From the sequence record PQ327946.1: a stretch of DNA of 64,000 nucleotides. The stretch is one strand, 5' to 3'. The stretch comes from a phage. The position numbers were made by a program, and so were the translations under genes. This document shows, piece after piece, positions 6,844 to 59,014 of this stretch (the first letter of the stretch is position 1; each line of letters starts with the position of its first letter). Below the pieces are notes generated by a model. It ran no database searches and was not told the origin of the DNA. It was given only the letters and a program-made list of their open reading frames with translations.

Positions 6844-9555
6844 TCAAAAATCGAACATATCGAACAGAGATGCTTTCTTCTCGTAATCGAGTTTCGCTGC
6901 TGATGTGAATCCTTCAAGTGGTTTAATAAATGTCTTCTCAAGGAGAACAGTGTAGTCCATCCAATGAAGTACGTCGTCTTTAATTAAATCTGTGATTTCA
7001 GTACCAGAAGGCCATGCGATACATTTATCACCGAATGGGTTTCCTTCACGTAAAGGCAGAACATATACTTTTTCACCTTCTACAACTTGCGGTGCATCGA
7101 TATTACCTTTGATAGCACGGTTATACGTCAGAATTCCACGAATATGGAATGGGCATTTGGGACCAGGGAATCCACCTACATCATATTTAGCAATGTTATT
7201 CGCAGAAGATACCGACGCGATGCTAATATAATTCAATTGACGGAATTCTTTTTCAAACTCTTTAAAATATTCTTGTAATGATTCTTCACCTTCTTGAAGC
7301 ATACGACGAATACATTCTTTAAGAGCTTTCTGTACTGCTTTAGGAGTCGAAGATTTCTGAGTCTCTAGACCCATGATTTTGAGTTTAGGCTCAGCATAAC
7401 GAGTACCTTCCATATCCCACACGTTTAATGCATAACGTTTCTTACCAGTCCAGAATCCACCAATACCTTTAGAACCGAGTGGAGGCCCGGCGATAGCTTC
7501 TCGGTCCATGAACATTAAGTGTTGTTTATTGTTCATGTATTCACACATTTCACGGAAACCTCTATCAATAGCTGGTTCCATACGTTCACGTGCAAACTTA
7601 TCTAAGAAGTCTACCCAATGGTTGGTATCACGGAATTTAGATTCACCAACCTTATCGATAATTTTATCAGCAGATACGTAAATAGAGTCTGTATCACCAT
7701 AAAGAACGAAAGCTTCACCTTCTGTACCACAAACTTCATTCAGATATTCATTAACTTTACGTTCAATCCACTGTAAAGCCATTTGACCAAATGTTGTGAT
7801 TGCAGTAGCATTACGCAAATCGTAATAACGGAACCAAACGTTTCCAAGTGCACCATAAAGCGAGTTGATGAGCAATTTACGGTTAATCTGTGCAGTCATA
7901 CCTGCAACTTCAGTACGTTGAGCTCTAAACAACATTTCATTAAGAGATTTAGCAGACAACTTTTTAATCTTTTCTTTAATCTCATCACTGAAGTCGAAAC
8001 GATAATCAACATCTAATGGTTCGTCAACAGAAAGATTAGGATTATGCAATGCCTCTTTAATTATTTCACCATTACGTTGAGCCGCAAGCATATAACCTTT
8101 ATGTTCTTTACGTTGATTAAAGACTTTAGTGATTTCAGTTGGAACAACACCGTCACGGTCTTTATAATACATCATGCCGTTAGGAGAACAACTGTACACA
8201 TCAGAAGGACGTTCAGCAACAGCGTTAATATAATCATGCAATGGAGCTACTTTAAACGTTCCTGCTATTGTTTCCGGGCTAATATTCACTTGGCGAATAA
8301 TACTTGGATACAGAGATGTAAGGTCGAAACTCATTACATATTTGTATCGATTTGGAATAGGTTCCTTAACAAAAGCGCCGGGATAAGGTTGAACCGGGTG
8401 AGAACGACCTTGTGGAATCACCTTGTTCTGCTCTTTAAGGCTATTAAAAATAATAGCATCCCATGTTTTAATTGGGCTAAACACGGATTGAATCTGTATC
8501 TTAGCATAATAACCCATGTCCAAACTCAAGTTGATGAACTGACGCTTAGCATCAATTTGCAATACACGATACACGTCGATAATGTTATAAGAAATATATC
8601 GTTGGTGATTGCTTTCACGAAGCTTAGAAATAGGGCCGTCATATTTCAGTTTACCAACGTTCAATTCAAATTCTGAAATGTAATCCAGAGAATACGACGG
8701 TTGATTGGTAAAAGAGAATTTTTTGTAAAGGTCAATGTAATCAAGAACAGAGATACCGAATAATGTAATGATTTCACGAGAACCATACATGTTTTCGATA
8801 ACTTTAACACGAGTTTTACGATGTGGTGATAAACGTTTCGCAGTAGATTCGCCAAAAATATTCTTGATTCGGTTATACACATATGGAATATCAAATGACT
8901 CAACGTTCCATCCAGTCAAAATGACAGGAGTTTTCTGTTGCCAGAAATTGAGATATTCCATCAATAATTCTTTTTCGTTATCGAACGGCATATAAATGAT
9001 TTTATCGATAATTTCGGATGGAACTTCATCACCACCTTGTTCTTGAAGCTTAGCCGCAATTTCGATAGACCATTCTTCTACATTACCATATGGAGAATTC
9101 AATAGATCAAATACGTAGAACCTGTCGTCAATTGAGTCATAATGGGTGATAGCATCAATCGGATGTTTTGCTTGTGACGGCTCAGGGAACCCATCCGGAG
9201 ATGTTACTTCGATGTCGAAGTTAGCCACACGAATTTTTGTATGATCGTATTTGATTTCATAGTTATAAGTGTCAGACAAATACGCCAATTTGAAATCGTC
9301 CATGCCAAGTGCTTCAAGACCGATATCTTCCATGCGTTTAATCCATTGGGAGGCATCACGCATATTGGCGAACAACTTACGAGTACACGGCTTACCGTAG
9401 ATATCGAAATATTTCGTAGCCTGACTTTCCGGACAATGAGCAAACAGTGATGGTTTATATTCTACTTCACGAGTACGTTCACGGCCATTAGAATCGATGT
9501 AACGTTCAAAAATTGAATCACCAATCTGTTCAACCGTTAAGTAAAATTCTTTCAT
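6844..9555 (-). CDS. 43: DNA polymerase (family B)
   Basis: 903 aa; exonuclease and polymerase motifs (FDIE, YGDTDS); N-terminus matches RB69-type gp43 as I recall it. Confidence 0.97.
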   Translation of the reverse strand: MKEFYLTVEQIGDSIFERYIDSNGRERTREVEYKPSLFAHCPESQATKYFDIYGKPCTRKLFANMRDASQWIKRMEDIGLEALGMDDFKLAYLSDTYNYEIKYDHTKIRVANFDIEVTSPDGFPEPSQAKHPIDAITHYDSIDDRFYVFDLLNSPYGNVEEWSIEIAAKLQEQGGDEVPSEIIDKIIYMPFDNEKELLMEYLNFWQQKTPVILTGWNVESFDIPYVYNRIKNIFGESTAKRLSPHRKTRVKVIENMYGSREIITLFGISVLDYIDLYKKFSFTNQPSYSLDYISEFELNVGKLKYDGPISKLRESNHQRYISYNIIDVYRVLQIDAKRQFINLSLDMGYYAKIQIQSVFSPIKTWDAIIFNSLKEQNKVIPQGRSHPVQPYPGAFVKEPIPNRYKYVMSFDLTSLYPSIIRQVNISPETIAGTFKVAPLHDYINAVAERPSDVYSCSPNGMMYYKDRDGVVPTEITKVFNQRKEHKGYMLAAQRNGEIIKEALHNPNLSVDEPLDVDYRFDFSDEIKEKIKKLSAKSLNEMLFRAQRTEVAGMTAQINRKLLINSLYGALGNVWFRYYDLRNATAITTFGQMALQWIERKVNEYLNEVCGTEGEAFVLYGDTDSIYVSADKIIDKVGESKFRDTNHWVDFLDKFARERMEPAIDRGFREMCEYMNNKQHLMFMDREAIAGPPLGSKGIGGFWTGKKRYALNVWDMEGTRYAEPKLKIMGLETQKSSTPKAVQKALKECIRRMLQEGEESLQEYFKEFEKEFRQLNYISIASVSSANNIAKYDVGGFPGPKCPFHIRGILTYNRAIKGNIDAPQVVEGEKVYVLPLREGNPFGDKCIAWPSGTEITDLIKDDVLHWMDYTVLLEKTFIKPLEGFTSAAKLDYEKKASLFDMFDF

Positions 9556-20453: not shown

Positions 20454-20632
20454 GGCTTAATTTCCTTCGCAATTGAACAGAAGATACCACGGTCACAAAG
20501 CATTTCACCAATTTCTGGATATTTGATCGAACGGTACCAAACATCCAGGCTTGAAACTCTGGTTATCTGTACTGCACTACCGTTGACAGAATAGTACTGG
20601 TCGACCTTAATTTCTTTATCTTCAATTGTCAT
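20450..20632 (-). CDS. Hypothetical small protein
   Basis: ATG at 20632 after promoter-like GTTTAC-N17-TAAGAT. Confidence 0.4.
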   Translation of the reverse strand: MTIEDKEIKVDQYYSVNGSAVQITRVSSLDVWYRSIKYPEIGEMLCDRGIFCSIAKEIKP

Positions 20633-20797
20633 TTTATTTTCCTCTATAGTAGATGGTTTAATCTTAACACATCTATTGAGGATGTAAACTGTTTTATGAA
20701 AATATTTTCGATTTGAGAGGGGCACAAGGAGATAGTGAAGTGAAGATTCCAATGGATTATATTAGAAATGAGATAAAGAAGACCAGGCGGCACCTGG

Positions 20798-34587: not shown

Positions 34588-34767
34588 TCACATAATCTCG
34601 TTAACATACATTTGCAATTCGGTGTGGGCTTCGGCCATCTTTTTCATAGCTCTGTTAATGTCGATGTCTCCATCTTCGCAACCATGAGCATTTTCCCAAT
34701 CAGATACCGCATTAGCATACTCTTCAATCAAAAACATCAACTTAGAAATCTTTTCTTTACGTGACAT
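34588..34767 (-). CDS. Hypothetical small protein
   Basis: ATG at 34767 (MSRKEK...). Confidence 0.4.
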   Translation of the reverse strand: MSRKEKISKLMFLIEEYANAVSDWENAHGCEDGDIDINRAMKKMAEAHTELQMYVNEIM

Positions 34768-34794
34768 AACGTTCTCCTCTAGTAAGTAAGGTCT

Positions 34795-34823
34795 ACTATA
34801 ACACAACCTGAGGAGAAGTAAAC
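34795..34823 (-). promoter_or_regulatory. Early promoter GTTTAC-N17-TATAGT
   Basis: Minus strand GTTTAC, 17 nt, TATAGT; flanked by TTCTCCTC/GAGGAGAA inverted repeat. Confidence 0.5.
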
Positions 34824-37937: not shown

Positions 37938-38396
37938 CTAGATTTTAATCACTGCTTTAGAAGCTTTTCCTGGTAGTCGTTTACTGTTAATAATAGCCAT
38001 TCTACATTGAAGAGTCTTCATTTTGAATGCTGGATTTTCGCGACAAACTGTAAGTCCTAGCCAAAGATTTCCATCAGTTATTTCTAAACGGCCTGGACGA
38101 TATTCGACACCTTCGACAAAATCTTCATCAACATCTGGACGTGCCGGCATTGATAAAAATTCTGCAACTTCTTTAACATGATTTTTTACTTTACGAAATA
38201 ATTCAAAAACGTAGTTCTCATCTATTTCTCTCTGGATAGCACGATCTAAGAGATGTTGAGAATACTTGATATGAAAGCCTGGTAGTCCAAGAGACTTTGC
38301 AGCATCTTTTATACCGGCATTTATTTTGCGGAACTCCGTTTCAAAGATTCGACGGAGTTTATTACGGCGGATAAAAACGTCAGAATTGATAGTCAT
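37938..38396 (-). CDS. regB: Endoribonuclease RegB
   Basis: 152 aa; sequence closely resembles T4 RegB as I recall it. Confidence 0.85.
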   Translation of the reverse strand: MTINSDVFIRRNKLRRIFETEFRKINAGIKDAAKSLGLPGFHIKYSQHLLDRAIQREIDENYVFELFRKVKNHVKEVAEFLSMPARPDVDEDFVEGVEYRPGRLEITDGNLWLGLTVCRENPAFKMKTLQCRMAIINSKRLPGKASKAVIKI

Positions 38397-38404
38397 TTTT
38401 GATT

Positions 38405-38454
38405 TCTCCTCTAGTTGACAGGTCTATAGTAACACAACTAGAGGAGAAGTAAAC
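38405..38454 (-). promoter_or_regulatory. Early promoter GTTTAC-N17-TACTAT inside a 13-bp inverted repeat; SD-sequestering hairpin for regB
   Basis: Arms TCTCCTCTAGTTG (38405..38417) and CAACTAGAGGAGA (38435..38447) flank the -10. Confidence 0.55.
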
Positions 38455-40446: not shown

Positions 40447-40718
40447 TTTGTTCTCTCTAAGTTTGGGCCATTCCATGGCACATGAATTGTCCATTTCTGT
40501 ATTTACCCATTACCGCACTTGGGCTCGACCTTATTACAGGTTGGCGGGAATCCCTCATAGAATCATGAGGTCCAGCTTGTTCCCATGTTATTTGAATGTA
40601 AATATTTTTGCCTTAATACTTATACCAGTGTGGCTTCATTAAAATTTTTTCATCGAGTCATTTTACCTCTCCAAGTAATTATGATTATACTATCACAATT
40701 CTAGGAGAAAGTAAACTG

Positions 40719-41021
40719 TTATTTACCTTTAATTACTTTAGCTGCTTCGATAGCCGCTTGCTGAAGGTCATCCATAGACATACCGAATTTAGAAGCAAAG
40801 TTATCAATTTTCTTTTCAACAGCATTCAAAGGCTTGGCCTGTTTACCTTCATTAGCGCCAGGAAGAGCGAGAATACGCTCTTTGTCAATATAAAGGCTTA
40901 CAAGTTTCTTACGGTCTTTATCGGACAAATCGTGAAATGAATGGGCCTTTTTATTTATAGCGGCTTCTAATTTACCTGCACTCACTCGCGCTTCAGTAAT
41001 AAATTCTTGATATGTTTTCAT
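40719..41021 (-). CDS. Internal protein candidate with capsid targeting sequence (IPII/IPIII-like)
   Basis: 100 aa; N-terminus MKTYQEFITEA matches the T4 internal-protein targeting sequence. Confidence 0.55.
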   Translation of the reverse strand: MKTYQEFITEARVSAGKLEAAINKKAHSFHDLSDKDRKKLVSLYIDKERILALPGANEGKQAKPLNAVEKKIDNFASKFGMSMDDLQQAAIEAAKVIKGK

Positions 41022-41112: not shown

Positions 41113-41526
41113 TTAGTAAATTGATTTACCATAGTATTTGTACCAAGTAGGACGTTGAGCAATTTTTTCATCTAAACGAGCTTGACTTATCGCAATGGAC
41201 GCTTCGGTCGGGACATAATTATTACGAAATTCGGCAGGGATGTCGGAAATATCTTGGACAGTCGTGTCCTTGATTTTGAAACCACGTTTCAAGCATTCAG
41301 CGATTAGCTCGATTTGACGTAAACGTAAAAATTCGAGTTTGTCGTAAAAGAATGTTACATGACCTGTGCCTAAGATAAATGTCGGGGAGATTTTAAAATC
41401 CTTTACACGTTTACCGTTTTGAACATGTTTACGGACTGCACCAAATACGCGTGGTAATTCACGATACTCAGCCATAAGATGTTGGTCGGTCAGTTCAGAA
41501 ACAAGTGTTAAATTGATACGAGTCAT
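41113..41526 (-). CDS. denV: Endonuclease V (pyrimidine dimer DNA glycosylase)
   Basis: 137 aa from ATG at 41526; [12 protein letters not shown] matches T4 DenV. Confidence 0.9.
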
Positions 41527-41529
41527 AAT

Positions 41530-41583
41530 TTCCTCCAAGTAGTTGATGAATGTATAGTATCAAAACCCTTGGAGGAAGTAAAC
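41530..41583 (-). promoter_or_regulatory. Early promoter and SD-sequestering inverted repeat upstream of denV
   Basis: Arms TTCCTCCAAG (41530..41539) and CTTGGAGGAA (41568..41577) flank -10 TACTAT; -35 at about 41577..41583. Confidence 0.5.
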
Positions 41584-47461: not shown

Positions 47462-48017
47462 GGATTAAATTGTTAGTGAAATTAGGACTAACAACCATGG
47501 TTTCATAAAGCGCATCAATAGCACTTAAAGCATCAACTCTTTTAAGCAAAGGCTTGCCTTCATACATAGTTTCAGAATCGACGATTAACGTAAAGTAATA
47601 TTTTTTATTATTGACCAGAACTTCTGTATCAATATAAAACATGTTAGATCTTAAAAGCTTGTCTCTAAAGCCTACGTAATCATCTGAACGTTCGCTGATA
47701 TATTCCCATTCAGTGTTTAAACAACAAACAGACCACGTAGGAGCAACGAAATCAGTGAATCTAATATCATGGTCTGCAACTAGTTTAGCAATAGCTCCGA
47801 TATCATGAATCATAATACCTGGGGCTAATAAAGATTTTCGGCGATTTGCATATTCAGTTGTCTCATAAGAAGACGACCAGTACCATTTACGTCCAGTTGC
47901 AACATGTCGTAATGAATCAACTAAAGACGTAGGTGGATTTACCTTATCTCGGAACTCTTCGAACATTGAGTCAATATCATTATTTTGGTTTCGCATGTTA
48001 ACTCCTTTATTATCCAA
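47400..48017 (-). CDS. Hypothetical protein
   Basis: 205 aa ORF. Confidence 0.45.
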   Translation of the reverse strand: MDNKGVNMRNQNNDIDSMFEEFRDKVNPPTSLVDSLRHVATGRKWYWSSSYETTEYANRRKSLLAPGIMIHDIGAIAKLVADHDIRFTDFVAPTWSVCCLNTEWEYISERSDDYVGFRDKLLRSNMFYIDTEVLVNNKKYYFTLIVDSETMYEGKPLLKRVDALSAIDALYETMVVSPNFTNNLILEQFIMECREYVKANPIHAK

Positions 48018-50646: not shown

Positions 50647-50723
<77 letters not shown>

Positions 50724-50729
50724 AATATA

Positions 50730-50803
50730 TGACCCAGACCAGATTCGAACTGGTAACCTTTCCCTTATGAGGGGACTGCTGCTAACCATTGAGCTACAGG
50801 GCC
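50730..50803 (-). tRNA. tRNA with anticodon CAU (Met or lysidine-Ile), non-canonical D arm
   Basis: Acceptor GGCCCTG/CTGGGTC, T arm ACCAG-TTCGAAT-CTGGT, loop CTCATAA; 6 nt downstream of tRNA-Arg. Confidence 0.6.
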
Positions 50804-50882: not shown

Positions 50883-51398
50883 TTAAAGCAAATCAATCAT
50901 TTTAACTGTTGGCAAAACGATTTCTTCTTCAATATAAGCAAATTCGACACGTTCAACTACACGCAAGAAATCATAATCATAATATTCAGAAGCATGGCCA
51001 AGAATATCAGTGAGACCTTCTGATACCAAATATTCATTCTCACGGAACAGGTCGAATACACGCGATTCGTCTTCTTCAGATTTATTACCGAGGTCGACTT
51101 CAATATCAAAGACCTTTTTAATGAATTCTGGATAAAGCTGGTCTGAGAACAGTCCTTCAACCAAGTATTCATAGATTAAAAGCGAGCAATCACTGAATAG
51201 TGTATTACCACAGTAACGTTCAGCTTTAGTACTAGAATGACGACTCTTAAATTTCTTCAAGAGATATTTAAACTGTTGGAGCTCATGCTCTTCTACACCA
51301 AATAATGTTTTGGTTTTATAGTTGTCACTGTCATTTTCCCAAGTAGTGACATCAATTACATAACCTTTAGGAATTGTACTGCCTAAACAAATATTCAT
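50883..51398 (-). CDS. Hypothetical acidic protein
   Basis: 171 aa ORF. Confidence 0.45.
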   Translation of the reverse strand: MNICLGSTIPKGYVIDVTTWENDSDNYKTKTLFGVEEHELQQFKYLLKKFKSRHSSTKAERYCGNTLFSDCSLLIYEYLVEGLFSDQLYPEFIKKVFDIEVDLGNKSEEDESRVFDLFRENEYLVSEGLTDILGHASEYYDYDFLRVVERVEFAYIEEEIVLPTVKMIDLL

Positions 51399-52257: not shown

Positions 52258-52287
52258 TTTATTATCCTCTCATGTTTTGATAGGACT

Positions 52288-52317
52288 ACTATAACATAGT
52301 CCTATCAGCATGTAAAC
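52288..52317 (-). promoter_or_regulatory. Early promoter GTTTAC-N18-TATAGT with inverted repeat
   Basis: TAGGACTA/TAGTCCTA repeat around -10. Confidence 0.45.
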
Positions 52318-52643: not shown

Positions 52644-52673
52644 ATAGTAACACACCATCATCCTTATGTAAAC
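52644..52673 (-). promoter_or_regulatory. Early promoter GTTTAC-N18-TACTAT
   Basis: Cassette with GGATGAT/ATCATCC inverted repeat. Confidence 0.45.
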
Positions 52674-58498: not shown

Positions 58499-59014
58499 AT
58501 GGCACAAATACTTCCTTTAAATACCGACTTAGGAGAAGACATGGAAGGGGCGTCTATTGACGTCCTTTTTACTCCACAGTTAGAAACAACCGAAACTTTA
58601 GTGTCAATAAATATAACAGATTATGAACCGACACAAGGCATTACGGTAGATGGTAATCGTTTATATGGAACATATGAAAGTGTGTTTAGCTTTTCTTCGG
58701 ATGCATTGAAATACCGATTAAATGATGATTTTGAAACCGCATCTTCATGGGATGATTTACCAAAAGATGAATCCACACAGTTATATTTGTGGAGAGCTCC
58801 TCAGAATCTTCGTAAAGTGTTTAGTTATACGGTTGAAATGATTTATAACTACCAAGAAGAAAGTTCATCAGGCGGTTCTAGAAGTGACTCTGGTACAGAA
58901 CCTCCACCGGCTCCAGTACAAAAAACTCTTACTAAGGTTTATACAAAAACTATAGTAGGAAATTGGAGCAAATGGGCTCAACAATTACGAAACTATGTTT
59001 ATGTGAGGCCGTGA
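58499..59014 (+). CDS. 5.1: Baseplate-associated protein
   Basis: 171 aa ORF after gene 5. Confidence 0.6.

Follow-up and report, generated by a model that had tools for sequence, protein, structure and literature searches.

A promoter-bearing hairpin over the regB Shine-Dalgarno sequence as a candidate transcript-origin gate in T4-like phages

The regB gene of T4-like phages raises the question of how synthesis of its product could depend on one promoter when RNA begun at other promoters is expected to run across the same gene. RegB is the nuclease by which T4 early mRNAs are inactivated, and its dosage is said to be under tight control. In T4 the regB promoter is shut down at 2-3 min of infection, production of RegB has to be kept under close regulation, and the enzyme cleaves its own Shine-Dalgarno (SD) sequence (PMC3014915). 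We addressed the question in a stretch of 64,000 nucleotides (nt) of phage sequence record PQ327946.1, the whole of which is called the window below. It is a T4-like myovirus region, 99.6% identical to Escherichia phage vB_EcoM_JQD51 and 98% identical to LF82-2, and its minus-strand genes follow the T4 order of e, ipIII, (denV), ipII, vs.8 to vs.3, regB, vs.1 and vs. Over regB it is ~75% identical to T4, and its RegB protein is 76% identical to T4 RegB. The original prediction for this locus was a promoter nested in an inverted repeat that would sequester the regB SD in read-through RNA.

The gene and its leader contain the following elements, with the start site placed from the spacing of the promoter.

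37938..38396, minus strand: regB coding sequence, 152 aa, endoribonuclease RegB (PHROG 1323, E 3.9e-75), with its ATG at 38396
38456-38454, minus strand: TAG stop of the vs.3-like open reading frame (ORF) upstream of regB, which ends at the -35
38454-38449, minus strand: -35 GTTTAC of a T4-type early promoter, its G common to the TAG stop
38448-38435, minus strand: 5' arm TTCTCCTCTAGTTG (anti-SD), taking up 14 nt of the 17-nt -35/-10 spacer
38434-38418, minus strand: 17-nt loop, with the TGt of an extended -10 (38434-38432), the -10 TACTAT (38431-38426) and the predicted start at ~38419
38417-38404, minus strand: 3' arm CAACTAGAGGAGAA with the regB SD GAGGAG, in which GGAG (38409-38406) is the RegB target core, then an A-rich tract

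Along the minus strand the 57-nt intergenic region reads TAG/GTTTAC, TTCTCCTCTAGTTG, TGT TACTAT AGACCTGT, CAACTAGAGGAGAA, ATCAAAA and ATG. The -35/-10 spacer is 17 nt when counted from GTTTAC, and the promoter can equally be read as TTTACT, 16 nt, TACTAT, followed by GAGGAG and ATG. Its -10 sits inside the hairpin loop, between the two arms, as had been proposed. The 5' arm falls wholly within the -35/-10 spacer and is therefore predicted to occur in no transcript of the nested promoter, only in RNA begun upstream. A generic sigma-70 scan missed this promoter because T4 early promoters use GTTTAC (GTTTAC/TACTAT has 8/12 matches to TTGACA/TATAAT); the T4-type pattern GTTTAC, N16-18, TAnnnT was used instead, and on the minus strand it returned the regB promoter and ~17 others with a plausible gene behind them. 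The late promoter TATAAATA does not occur at the regB site, where the nested promoter is of the early type (GTTTAC, 17 nt, TGtTACTAT). No noteworthy ORF, promoter or terminator is present on the plus strand at this position, and Rfam has no family there, its sole gathering-score matches in the window being two tRNAs. A reading of the stem as an intrinsic terminator, on either strand, was rejected for want of a U-run.

The regB repeat is the longest perfect inverted repeat in the window among those with loops of 3-40 nt. It had been described as 13 bp long; those 13-bp arms are exact, but the perfect repeat extends to 14 bp. Dinucleotide shuffling gives an expectation of 0.03 inverted repeats of at least 13 bp per shuffle, and none of 60 shuffles had more than one. 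The long RNA, taken from the -35 to ATG+3, has a predicted fold of -21.6 kcal/mol (z -3.79, equalled in 0/200 shuffles) in which the SD is 100% paired, whereas the short RNA, taken from the predicted start, folds at -2.1 kcal/mol, not better than its shuffles, and leaves the SD open. Motif geometry and predicted folds are thus consistent with both halves of the earlier claim, that a transcript of the nested promoter begins inside the repeat with its SD free and that a read-through transcript pairs it. Among 88 SD-bearing gene starts, each folded in a context of -62 to +6, the regB SD ranks first for pairing, with an unpaired probability of 0.000 against a median of 0.52, followed by those of gene e and denV in second and third place. 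The leader also has the form of a RegB target, GGAG then an A-rich tract (GGAGAAAUCAAAAAUG), a site that the short RNA leaves open and the long RNA pairs.

Read-through RNA across regB is expected, because the vs.3-like ORF ends at the -35 and the minus strand has no convincing terminator that would separate regB from the early promoters upstream of it (40716, 41081 and 41583) or from the TATAAATA motif at 40959. The sole terminator-like site in this interval, at 39951-39936, is weak, with a stem of 5 bp. The next strong minus-strand terminator downstream of regB is ~1.4 kb away, at 37031-37013.

We consider it probable that the hairpin acts as a gate, such that translation of regB depends on where the transcript began. 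In the mechanism that we propose, an early promoter is built into a hairpin, with the regB SD as its 3' arm and the -35/-10 spacer of the promoter itself as its 5' arm. RNA begun at ~38419 would lack the 5' arm, and its 23-nt leader would be unstructured, with an SD accessible to ribosomes; because GGAG in that SD precedes an A-rich tract, the SD would be exposed to RegB self-cleavage as well. RNA arriving from upstream (vs.3 to vs.8 or denV, from early, middle or late promoters) would carry both arms, and its SD, once transcribed, would snap into the 14-bp helix of ~-21 kcal/mol and block binding of the 30S subunit. RegB would then be made only from its own immediate-early transcript, in a short burst lasting until the early promoters are shut off while transcription continues, and the helix would carry promoter shut-off through to the protein level despite continued read-through. 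RNA secondary structure is reported to inhibit RegB easily (PMC1702504; PMC3014915), and the same helix would render the read-through GGAG resistant to the enzyme. That the hidden GGAG is also RegB's own cleavage site goes beyond the original prediction. The interpretation is supported computationally, and long and short RNAs would be expected to differ in translation. If it is correct, the helix would be a third layer of regB control, beside early-promoter shut-off and self-cleavage, and its layout, found also at denV, alc, motB.2 and other genes, would help to explain how synthesis of some early proteins ends while upstream promoters keep the genes transcribed.

Conservation of the element was assessed in RegB loci from IMG/VR, which provided 38 distinct upstream regions, including 25 distinct promoter-bearing leaders. 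In these 25 leaders the G, T, T, A and C of the -35 are invariant, and the TG and TAnnnT motifs are conserved. The spacer pairs with the SD in 21/25, down to a RegB identity of 55%, and in those leaders the predicted folds are -16 to -25 kcal/mol for the long RNAs and 0 to -2 kcal/mol for the short ones. A CTCC/GGAG core is constant, and the remaining stem is lineage-specific and compensating. The arm pairs include TCTCCTCTAGTTG/CAACTAGAGGAGA, TTTTCCTCTTGACTG/CAGTTAAGAGGAGAA in T4, TTTCTCCTCTTTATG/CATAAAGAGGAGAAA in L027, ATCTCCTTTTAGT/ACTAAAAGGAGAT in L030, ATCTCCTGTAG/CTACAGGAGAT in L033 and ATCCTCATTTG/CAAATGAGGAT in L044. Two leaders, L035 and L054, contain a stem flanking the -10 and retain the outer pairing with the SD as well.

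Chimeras that join the 5' half of one leader to the 3' half of another lineage average -12.5 kcal/mol, compared with -20.3 kcal/mol for the native leaders; swapping the arms thus costs ~8 kcal/mol, and 0/20000 permutations were as good as the native combination. A MAFFT alignment of the leaders placed the arms out of register and was not used for pair counts, which were taken instead from a gapless alignment anchored on the CC/GG core. In this register-anchored alignment 79.5% of cells pair, compared with 64.9% after shuffling (0/500), and 10/14 stem pairs have double changes, affecting both sides. The covariation score is 0.354, compared with 0.12 for shuffled leaders (0/500) and 0.05-0.10 when the registers are slid. 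Compensatory change across divergent RegB-encoding phages, as read from these leaders, maintains the predicted pairing.

Two groups of orthologues depart from the arrangement in ways that the gate model predicts. In L058-L061, which are distant (RegB ~40-43% identical), an intrinsic terminator stands directly before the promoter and there is no anti-SD arm. L045-L047 (RegB 63% identical) have neither the -10 nor the hairpin and carry no GGAG SD; a relic -35-like GTGTAC is fused there to AAGCAGGTTGAAATG, with an SD that is not GGAG. From this layout regB in L045-L047 can only be expressed from read-through RNA, with its SD unmasked, and it looks like a deletion took the nested promoter and the mask together.

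The same design was said to recur at denV, gene e and gene 49, and similar arrangements were found at further early promoters in the window.

41526..41583, minus strand: denV element, with GTTTAC (41583-41578), 18 nt, the -10 TACTAT (41559-41554) and the ATG at 41526
41577-41568 and 41539-41530, minus strand: denV arms, TTCCTCCAAG in the spacer and CTTGGAGGAA over the SD; long RNA -19.3 kcal/mol (z -3.5), short RNA 0
42379-42368 and 42363-42352, minus strand: gene e (lysozyme) hairpin AAUACCUCCUAU / GUGGGAGGUAUU, masking the SD; -16.3 kcal/mol, z -3.5
24517-24508 and 24502-24493, minus strand: gene 49 (endonuclease VII) stem, covering the SD region; -13.6 kcal/mol, z -2.5
34767..34823, minus strand: cassette paralogous to that of regB (GTTTAC, TTCTCCTC..., TATAGT, ...GAGGAGAA), before a 59-aa ORF (PHROG 2758)
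20632..20689, minus strand: early promoter with an anti-SD arm, before a 60-aa ORF (PHROG 2283); fold -12.1, z -2.3

The denV hairpin falls exactly where it had been placed, at 41530..41583, and the design there is that of regB. Genes e and 49 do have SD-covering hairpins, though with late-type rather than early promoters: in gene e a late-promoter-like TATAAAcg lies within and beside the 5' arm, and in gene 49 the late promoter TATAAATA (24524-24517) adjoins it. The regB promoter is of the early sigma-70 type, so its temporal logic is inverted relative to the late promoters of e and 49, a point that the original prediction did not include. The helices of regB (-21.6 kcal/mol) and denV exceed those of e and 49 in stability within the same genome, although the latter two belong to a class established by experiment, of which gene e is the textbook example. 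Among denV orthologues the spacer-arm design occurs with several unrelated stems, and a second geometry is seen, with the 5' arm overlapping both -10 and discriminator (e.g. TATGATGTCTTCC...GGAGGACATCATG), an arm that is likewise absent from the promoter-proximal RNA. In four denV homologues on contigs of 345-378 kb (L085, L086, L088 and L090) the -35 TTGAC lies inside the 5' arm of a terminator hairpin, and the T-run serves as the spacer to TATAAT (e.g. GGGTTGACTTCGGTCAGCCCTTTTTGCTATAAT), giving a compact terminator-promoter composite in the style of the RB49 PeSL, a class of stem-loop promoter cassettes that is considered below.

A further early-promoter cassette, at 40716-40495 (minus strand), consists of GTTTAC-TTTCTCCTAGAATTGTGA-TAGTAT...CTTGGAGAGG followed by ATGACTCGATGA, which is the first denV codons (MTR) and a stop. 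After this three-codon remnant come ~170 nt without an ORF, and the next gene is at 40494. The cassette is most like the T4 ipIII promoter and also resembles the denV leader in L080; T4 has denV at this position, after ipII. Judged from its sequence, it looks like a vestige left when a gene moved at a promoter cassette. On the late side, a weaker hairpin, GTCTCCTTC...AAGGAGGAC (~-12 kcal/mol; 56159-56125, minus strand), holds a late promoter TATAAATA (56159-56152) in its loop and covers the SD of a 149-aa ORF (starting MAYSGKW) that belongs to the block of head-completion/tail genes. This hairpin could be a further SD mask of the late type.

The 34823 cassette shares 24/26 and 12/12 identities with that of regB. 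Its pairing is limited to the 8-bp SD core and AGGT/ACCT, and its fold is weak (-15.2, z -0.9). A strong intrinsic terminator (GCCCCTTCCTTACGGTTGGGGC and a T-run) lies at 34862-34834 and also upstream of the 49367 promoter (minus strand), with an early promoter immediately after it in both cases. At 20689 the pairs are TCCTC (20682-20678) with GAGGA (20644-20640), plus TAGATG/CATCTA. Spacer-leader pairing that reaches the SD was found at 5/17 early promoters in the window (denV, regB, 34823, 20689 and the 40716 cassette). At another 6/17 a repeat flanks the -10 only (e.g. GATAGGACT-ATGTTATAGT-AGTCCTATC), and the last 6/17 have none. Over the early promoters of the window, native spacer-leader pairs average -10.9 kcal/mol, compared with -7.2 kcal/mol when swapped, and 0/20000 permutations were as good. 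Promoter-embedded inverted repeats of a PeSL-like kind are found genome-wide in these phages, which again extends the original prediction. The six repeats that flank the -10 (minus strand; 52278-52307 and those with -35 starts at 52673, 45902, 44609, 34109 and 30216) end at the start-site motif. One example, TGATAGGACTA-ctataaca-TAGTCCTATCA, has an 11-bp stem and fits the AGNA-loop-TCNT stems described for T4/PST PeSLs.

In the T4 reference (NC_000866) the minus strand was scanned over 1-50, 55-70 and 119-169 kb, and 29 such promoters were found. The SD is masked, in a helix with the promoter spacer, in the long form only at 8/29: motB.2, mobD.5, regB, denV, alt.-3, 30.8, alc and ndd.4 (-35 starts at 8218, 58780, 62797, 65413, 123093, 130310, 136336 and 166807). 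The long RNAs of these eight leaders fold at -12 to -24 kcal/mol, and the unpaired probability of the SD is 0-0.22 in the long forms and 0.37-0.99 in the short ones. The alc and alt.-3 cassettes are nearly identical, and six further T4 promoters have repeats flanking the -10 only. A broader reading, to which we give tentative credence somewhat short of an even balance, is that early promoters set in SD-masking hairpins form a general transcript-origin gate in T4-like phages, covering about a quarter of early promoters. Genes of this type would yield protein from their own immediate-early transcript alone and would go silent when the early promoters shut down, despite continuing read-through transcription, and read-through RNA at regB would also be exempt from RegB cleavage. 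Protein synthesis would then owe part of its early-to-middle switch to a gate encoded in cis.

Several observations weigh against this interpretation, at regB or in its general form. The start site, the read-through RNA, the block to translation and the protection from RegB are all deduced from sequence. Anchoring the leader alignment selects the best CC/GG register and is biased towards pairing, a bias from which the arm-swap test is free. Interior mismatches in the stems (G.U 2, C.A 2) reveal no strand asymmetry that would prove selection at the RNA level. The base of the stem could be opened briefly by a ribosome that terminates on the vs.3 stop, which lies 5 nt ahead of the arm. Among the orthologues, L052 and L053 have the promoter but neither a terminator nor an anti-SD arm. 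The mutual exclusion of terminator and hairpin, true across the regB orthologues, fails at the 34823 cassette, which directly follows a strong terminator and yet has an SD-pairing arm. Finally, the 6/17 early promoters of the window whose repeats flank the -10 only leave the SD untouched, so some other pressure must also create promoter-embedded repeats.

The alternative that survives best assigns the helix chiefly to protection of RNA. By hiding GGAG in polycistronic read-through RNA of the delayed-early or middle kind, it would spare the downstream message (vs.1, vs and tk.4 onward) from RegB cleavage and the ensuing decay, with silencing of regB as a by-product. RegB cuts its own SD and is inhibited by structure, and middle and late GGAG RNAs are resistant (PMC3014915; PMC1702504). 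The buried GGAG with its A-rich tract fits the described target, and the downstream genes share the RNA, since a strong terminator follows only ~1.4 kb on (37031-37013). The design is nevertheless also present at SDs without GGAG (GAGGA in L044, GAGGAU in T4 motB.2 and GAGGAA at 20689 in the window) and at denV, where the GGAG reportedly resists RegB because the A-rich element is missing (PMC1702504). RegB shielding is therefore not the general driver, and as the chief role of the regB helix it appears rather unlikely, although it is compatible with an origin-dependent gate and the two may act jointly.

A less probable explanation is that the hairpin is a generic stem-loop of the PeSL cassette type, which attenuates or terminates upstream transcription and supplies homology for modular recombination, its overlap with the SD being incidental. 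PeSLs are defined by an early promoter, a stem-loop between the -35 and -10 or over the -10, and an SD and ATG at the end (PMC2839356; PMC4122927). Complementarity between spacer and leader at 11/17 early promoters in the window accords with such a class, as do the regB cassette paralogue at 34823 and the 40716 early-promoter cassette, which precedes only a three-codon remnant. At regB the helix is followed by AAAUCAAAAAUG, with no U-run, and a terminator scan makes no call there. Across the regB orthologues the stem changes its sequence but its 3' arm remains at the SD, a constancy that neither attenuation nor recombination would require, and L035 and L054 keep the outer SD pairing on top of the stem flanking the -10. 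We judge a purely PeSL-type origin improbable. Should the transcript-origin gate be correct, at least part of the PeSL promoter-cassette stem-loops would have a translational instead of a terminator function.

Translational coupling, in which regB on read-through RNA would be translated only when a ribosome reaching the end of vs.3 opens the stem at its base, seems more doubtful still. The vs.3-like stop lies 5 nt before the 5' arm, and an upstream stop abuts the -35 in all hairpin-bearing orthologues, but genome compaction explains this tight spacing equally well, and the distance from stop to arm ranges from ~5 to 11 nt among lineages, so that in many a terminating ribosome falls short of the pairs that hold GGAG. 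An element acting at the DNA level (an operator for a dimeric protein or a promoter-modulating cruciform) or a mere coincidence is hardly credible even though the repeat straddles the -10, since complementarity of the arms is conserved and their sequence is not, which argues against a protein-recognition site, different promoters have unrelated arms, a 17-nt loop disfavours cruciform extrusion, and chance is excluded by the expectation of 0.03 and by conservation. The DNA-level idea draws on the abrupt shut-off of T4 early promoters, which is not fully understood (PMC3014915).

The mechanism that we favour, a gate set by transcript origin, is the known occlusion of e, 49, soc and I-TevI, built here on an early promoter, and it has features in common with the PeSL class. 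Upstream-derived transcripts of these four T4 genes bury the SD and/or AUG in a helix, transcripts from the nested late promoters are translated (PMC3014915), and the hairpins of the translation initiation regions (TIRs) are conserved in relatives (Uzan & Miller 2010, PMC3014915). As in those genes, regB has a predicted stable helix that pairs the SD, a promoter placed, as judged from its motifs, so that its transcripts would lack the 5' strand, and a structure predicted in related phages. It differs in that its promoter is early, with expression expected to be confined to the first minutes, whereas theirs are late (gp55, TATAAATA) and delay expression. It also differs in geometry, the 5' arm being the -35/-10 spacer with the -10 in the loop, and in that the masked SD is the site of RegB's autoregulatory cleavage. 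Neither regB nor denV is on the list of TIR-hairpin genes in PMC3014915. The regB autoregulation treated there concerns the same GGAG SD and A-rich tract, with an early promoter immediately upstream that is conserved in T4 relatives; as described it consists of SD cleavage, and a hairpin hiding the site in read-through RNA is not mentioned (PMC3014915). Aeromonas phage Aeh1 mobE is reported to have an RBS-sequestering hairpin (RBS, ribosome-binding site) (Gibb & Edgell 2009, via PMC3014915); unlike regB, mobE is a homing-endonuclease gene within nrd genes, and its promoter class and geometry are different.

The comparison with PeSLs is closer in promoter class. The T4/PST consensus for the PeSL early promoter is TTTACW, N17, TAYWAT (PMC4122927, Comeau 2014), and the stems have been interpreted as terminators or attenuators and as recombination sites (Arbiol 2010, PMC2839356; PMC4122927). 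The regB element resembles them in its sigma-70-like early promoter, a stem-loop 5' arm in the spacer, a -10 in the loop, and an SD and ATG. PeSL cassettes are also repeated within a genome and linked to gene shuffling, which the 34823 paralogue and the related early-promoter cassette at 40716, with its gene remnant, may parallel. The regB element differs in having no U-tract or terminator signature at the sequence level and a 3' arm that coincides with the SD in almost every lineage and turns over by compensatory change.

A general early-promoter gate is absent from current reviews, which list late-promoter cases only. Fold-back inhibition in IS10 and IS50 has a similar logic: outside transcripts carry the complement of the RBS and are silent, whereas own-promoter transcripts start inside the repeat and are translated. 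Those elements are bacterial insertion sequences, unlike regB, and the effect is insulation from external promoters, not phage temporal control. Liebig and Rueger reportedly compared T4 early promoters and ribosome-binding sites in 1989. Our literature search found no description of a regB or denV leader hairpin; it did not cover older primary papers, where a prior description is possible. The main value of the present analysis is that it may generalise occlusion to about a quarter of early promoters, in a form that is easily testable in T4.

We also observed features elsewhere in the window. The SD at 58972 (plus strand) is strongly paired in its long context, with a structure of -24.9 kcal/mol over ~70 nt upstream. 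The SD at 47996 (minus strand) is strongly paired as well and stands just after a terminator-like GGAGGACTCCGGTCCTCC and T-run. The two tRNA genes lie at 50650-50803 (minus strand), and a MotA-box-type middle promoter motif (TTTGCTTTA, 12 nt, TATTAT) is found just upstream of them, at 50892.

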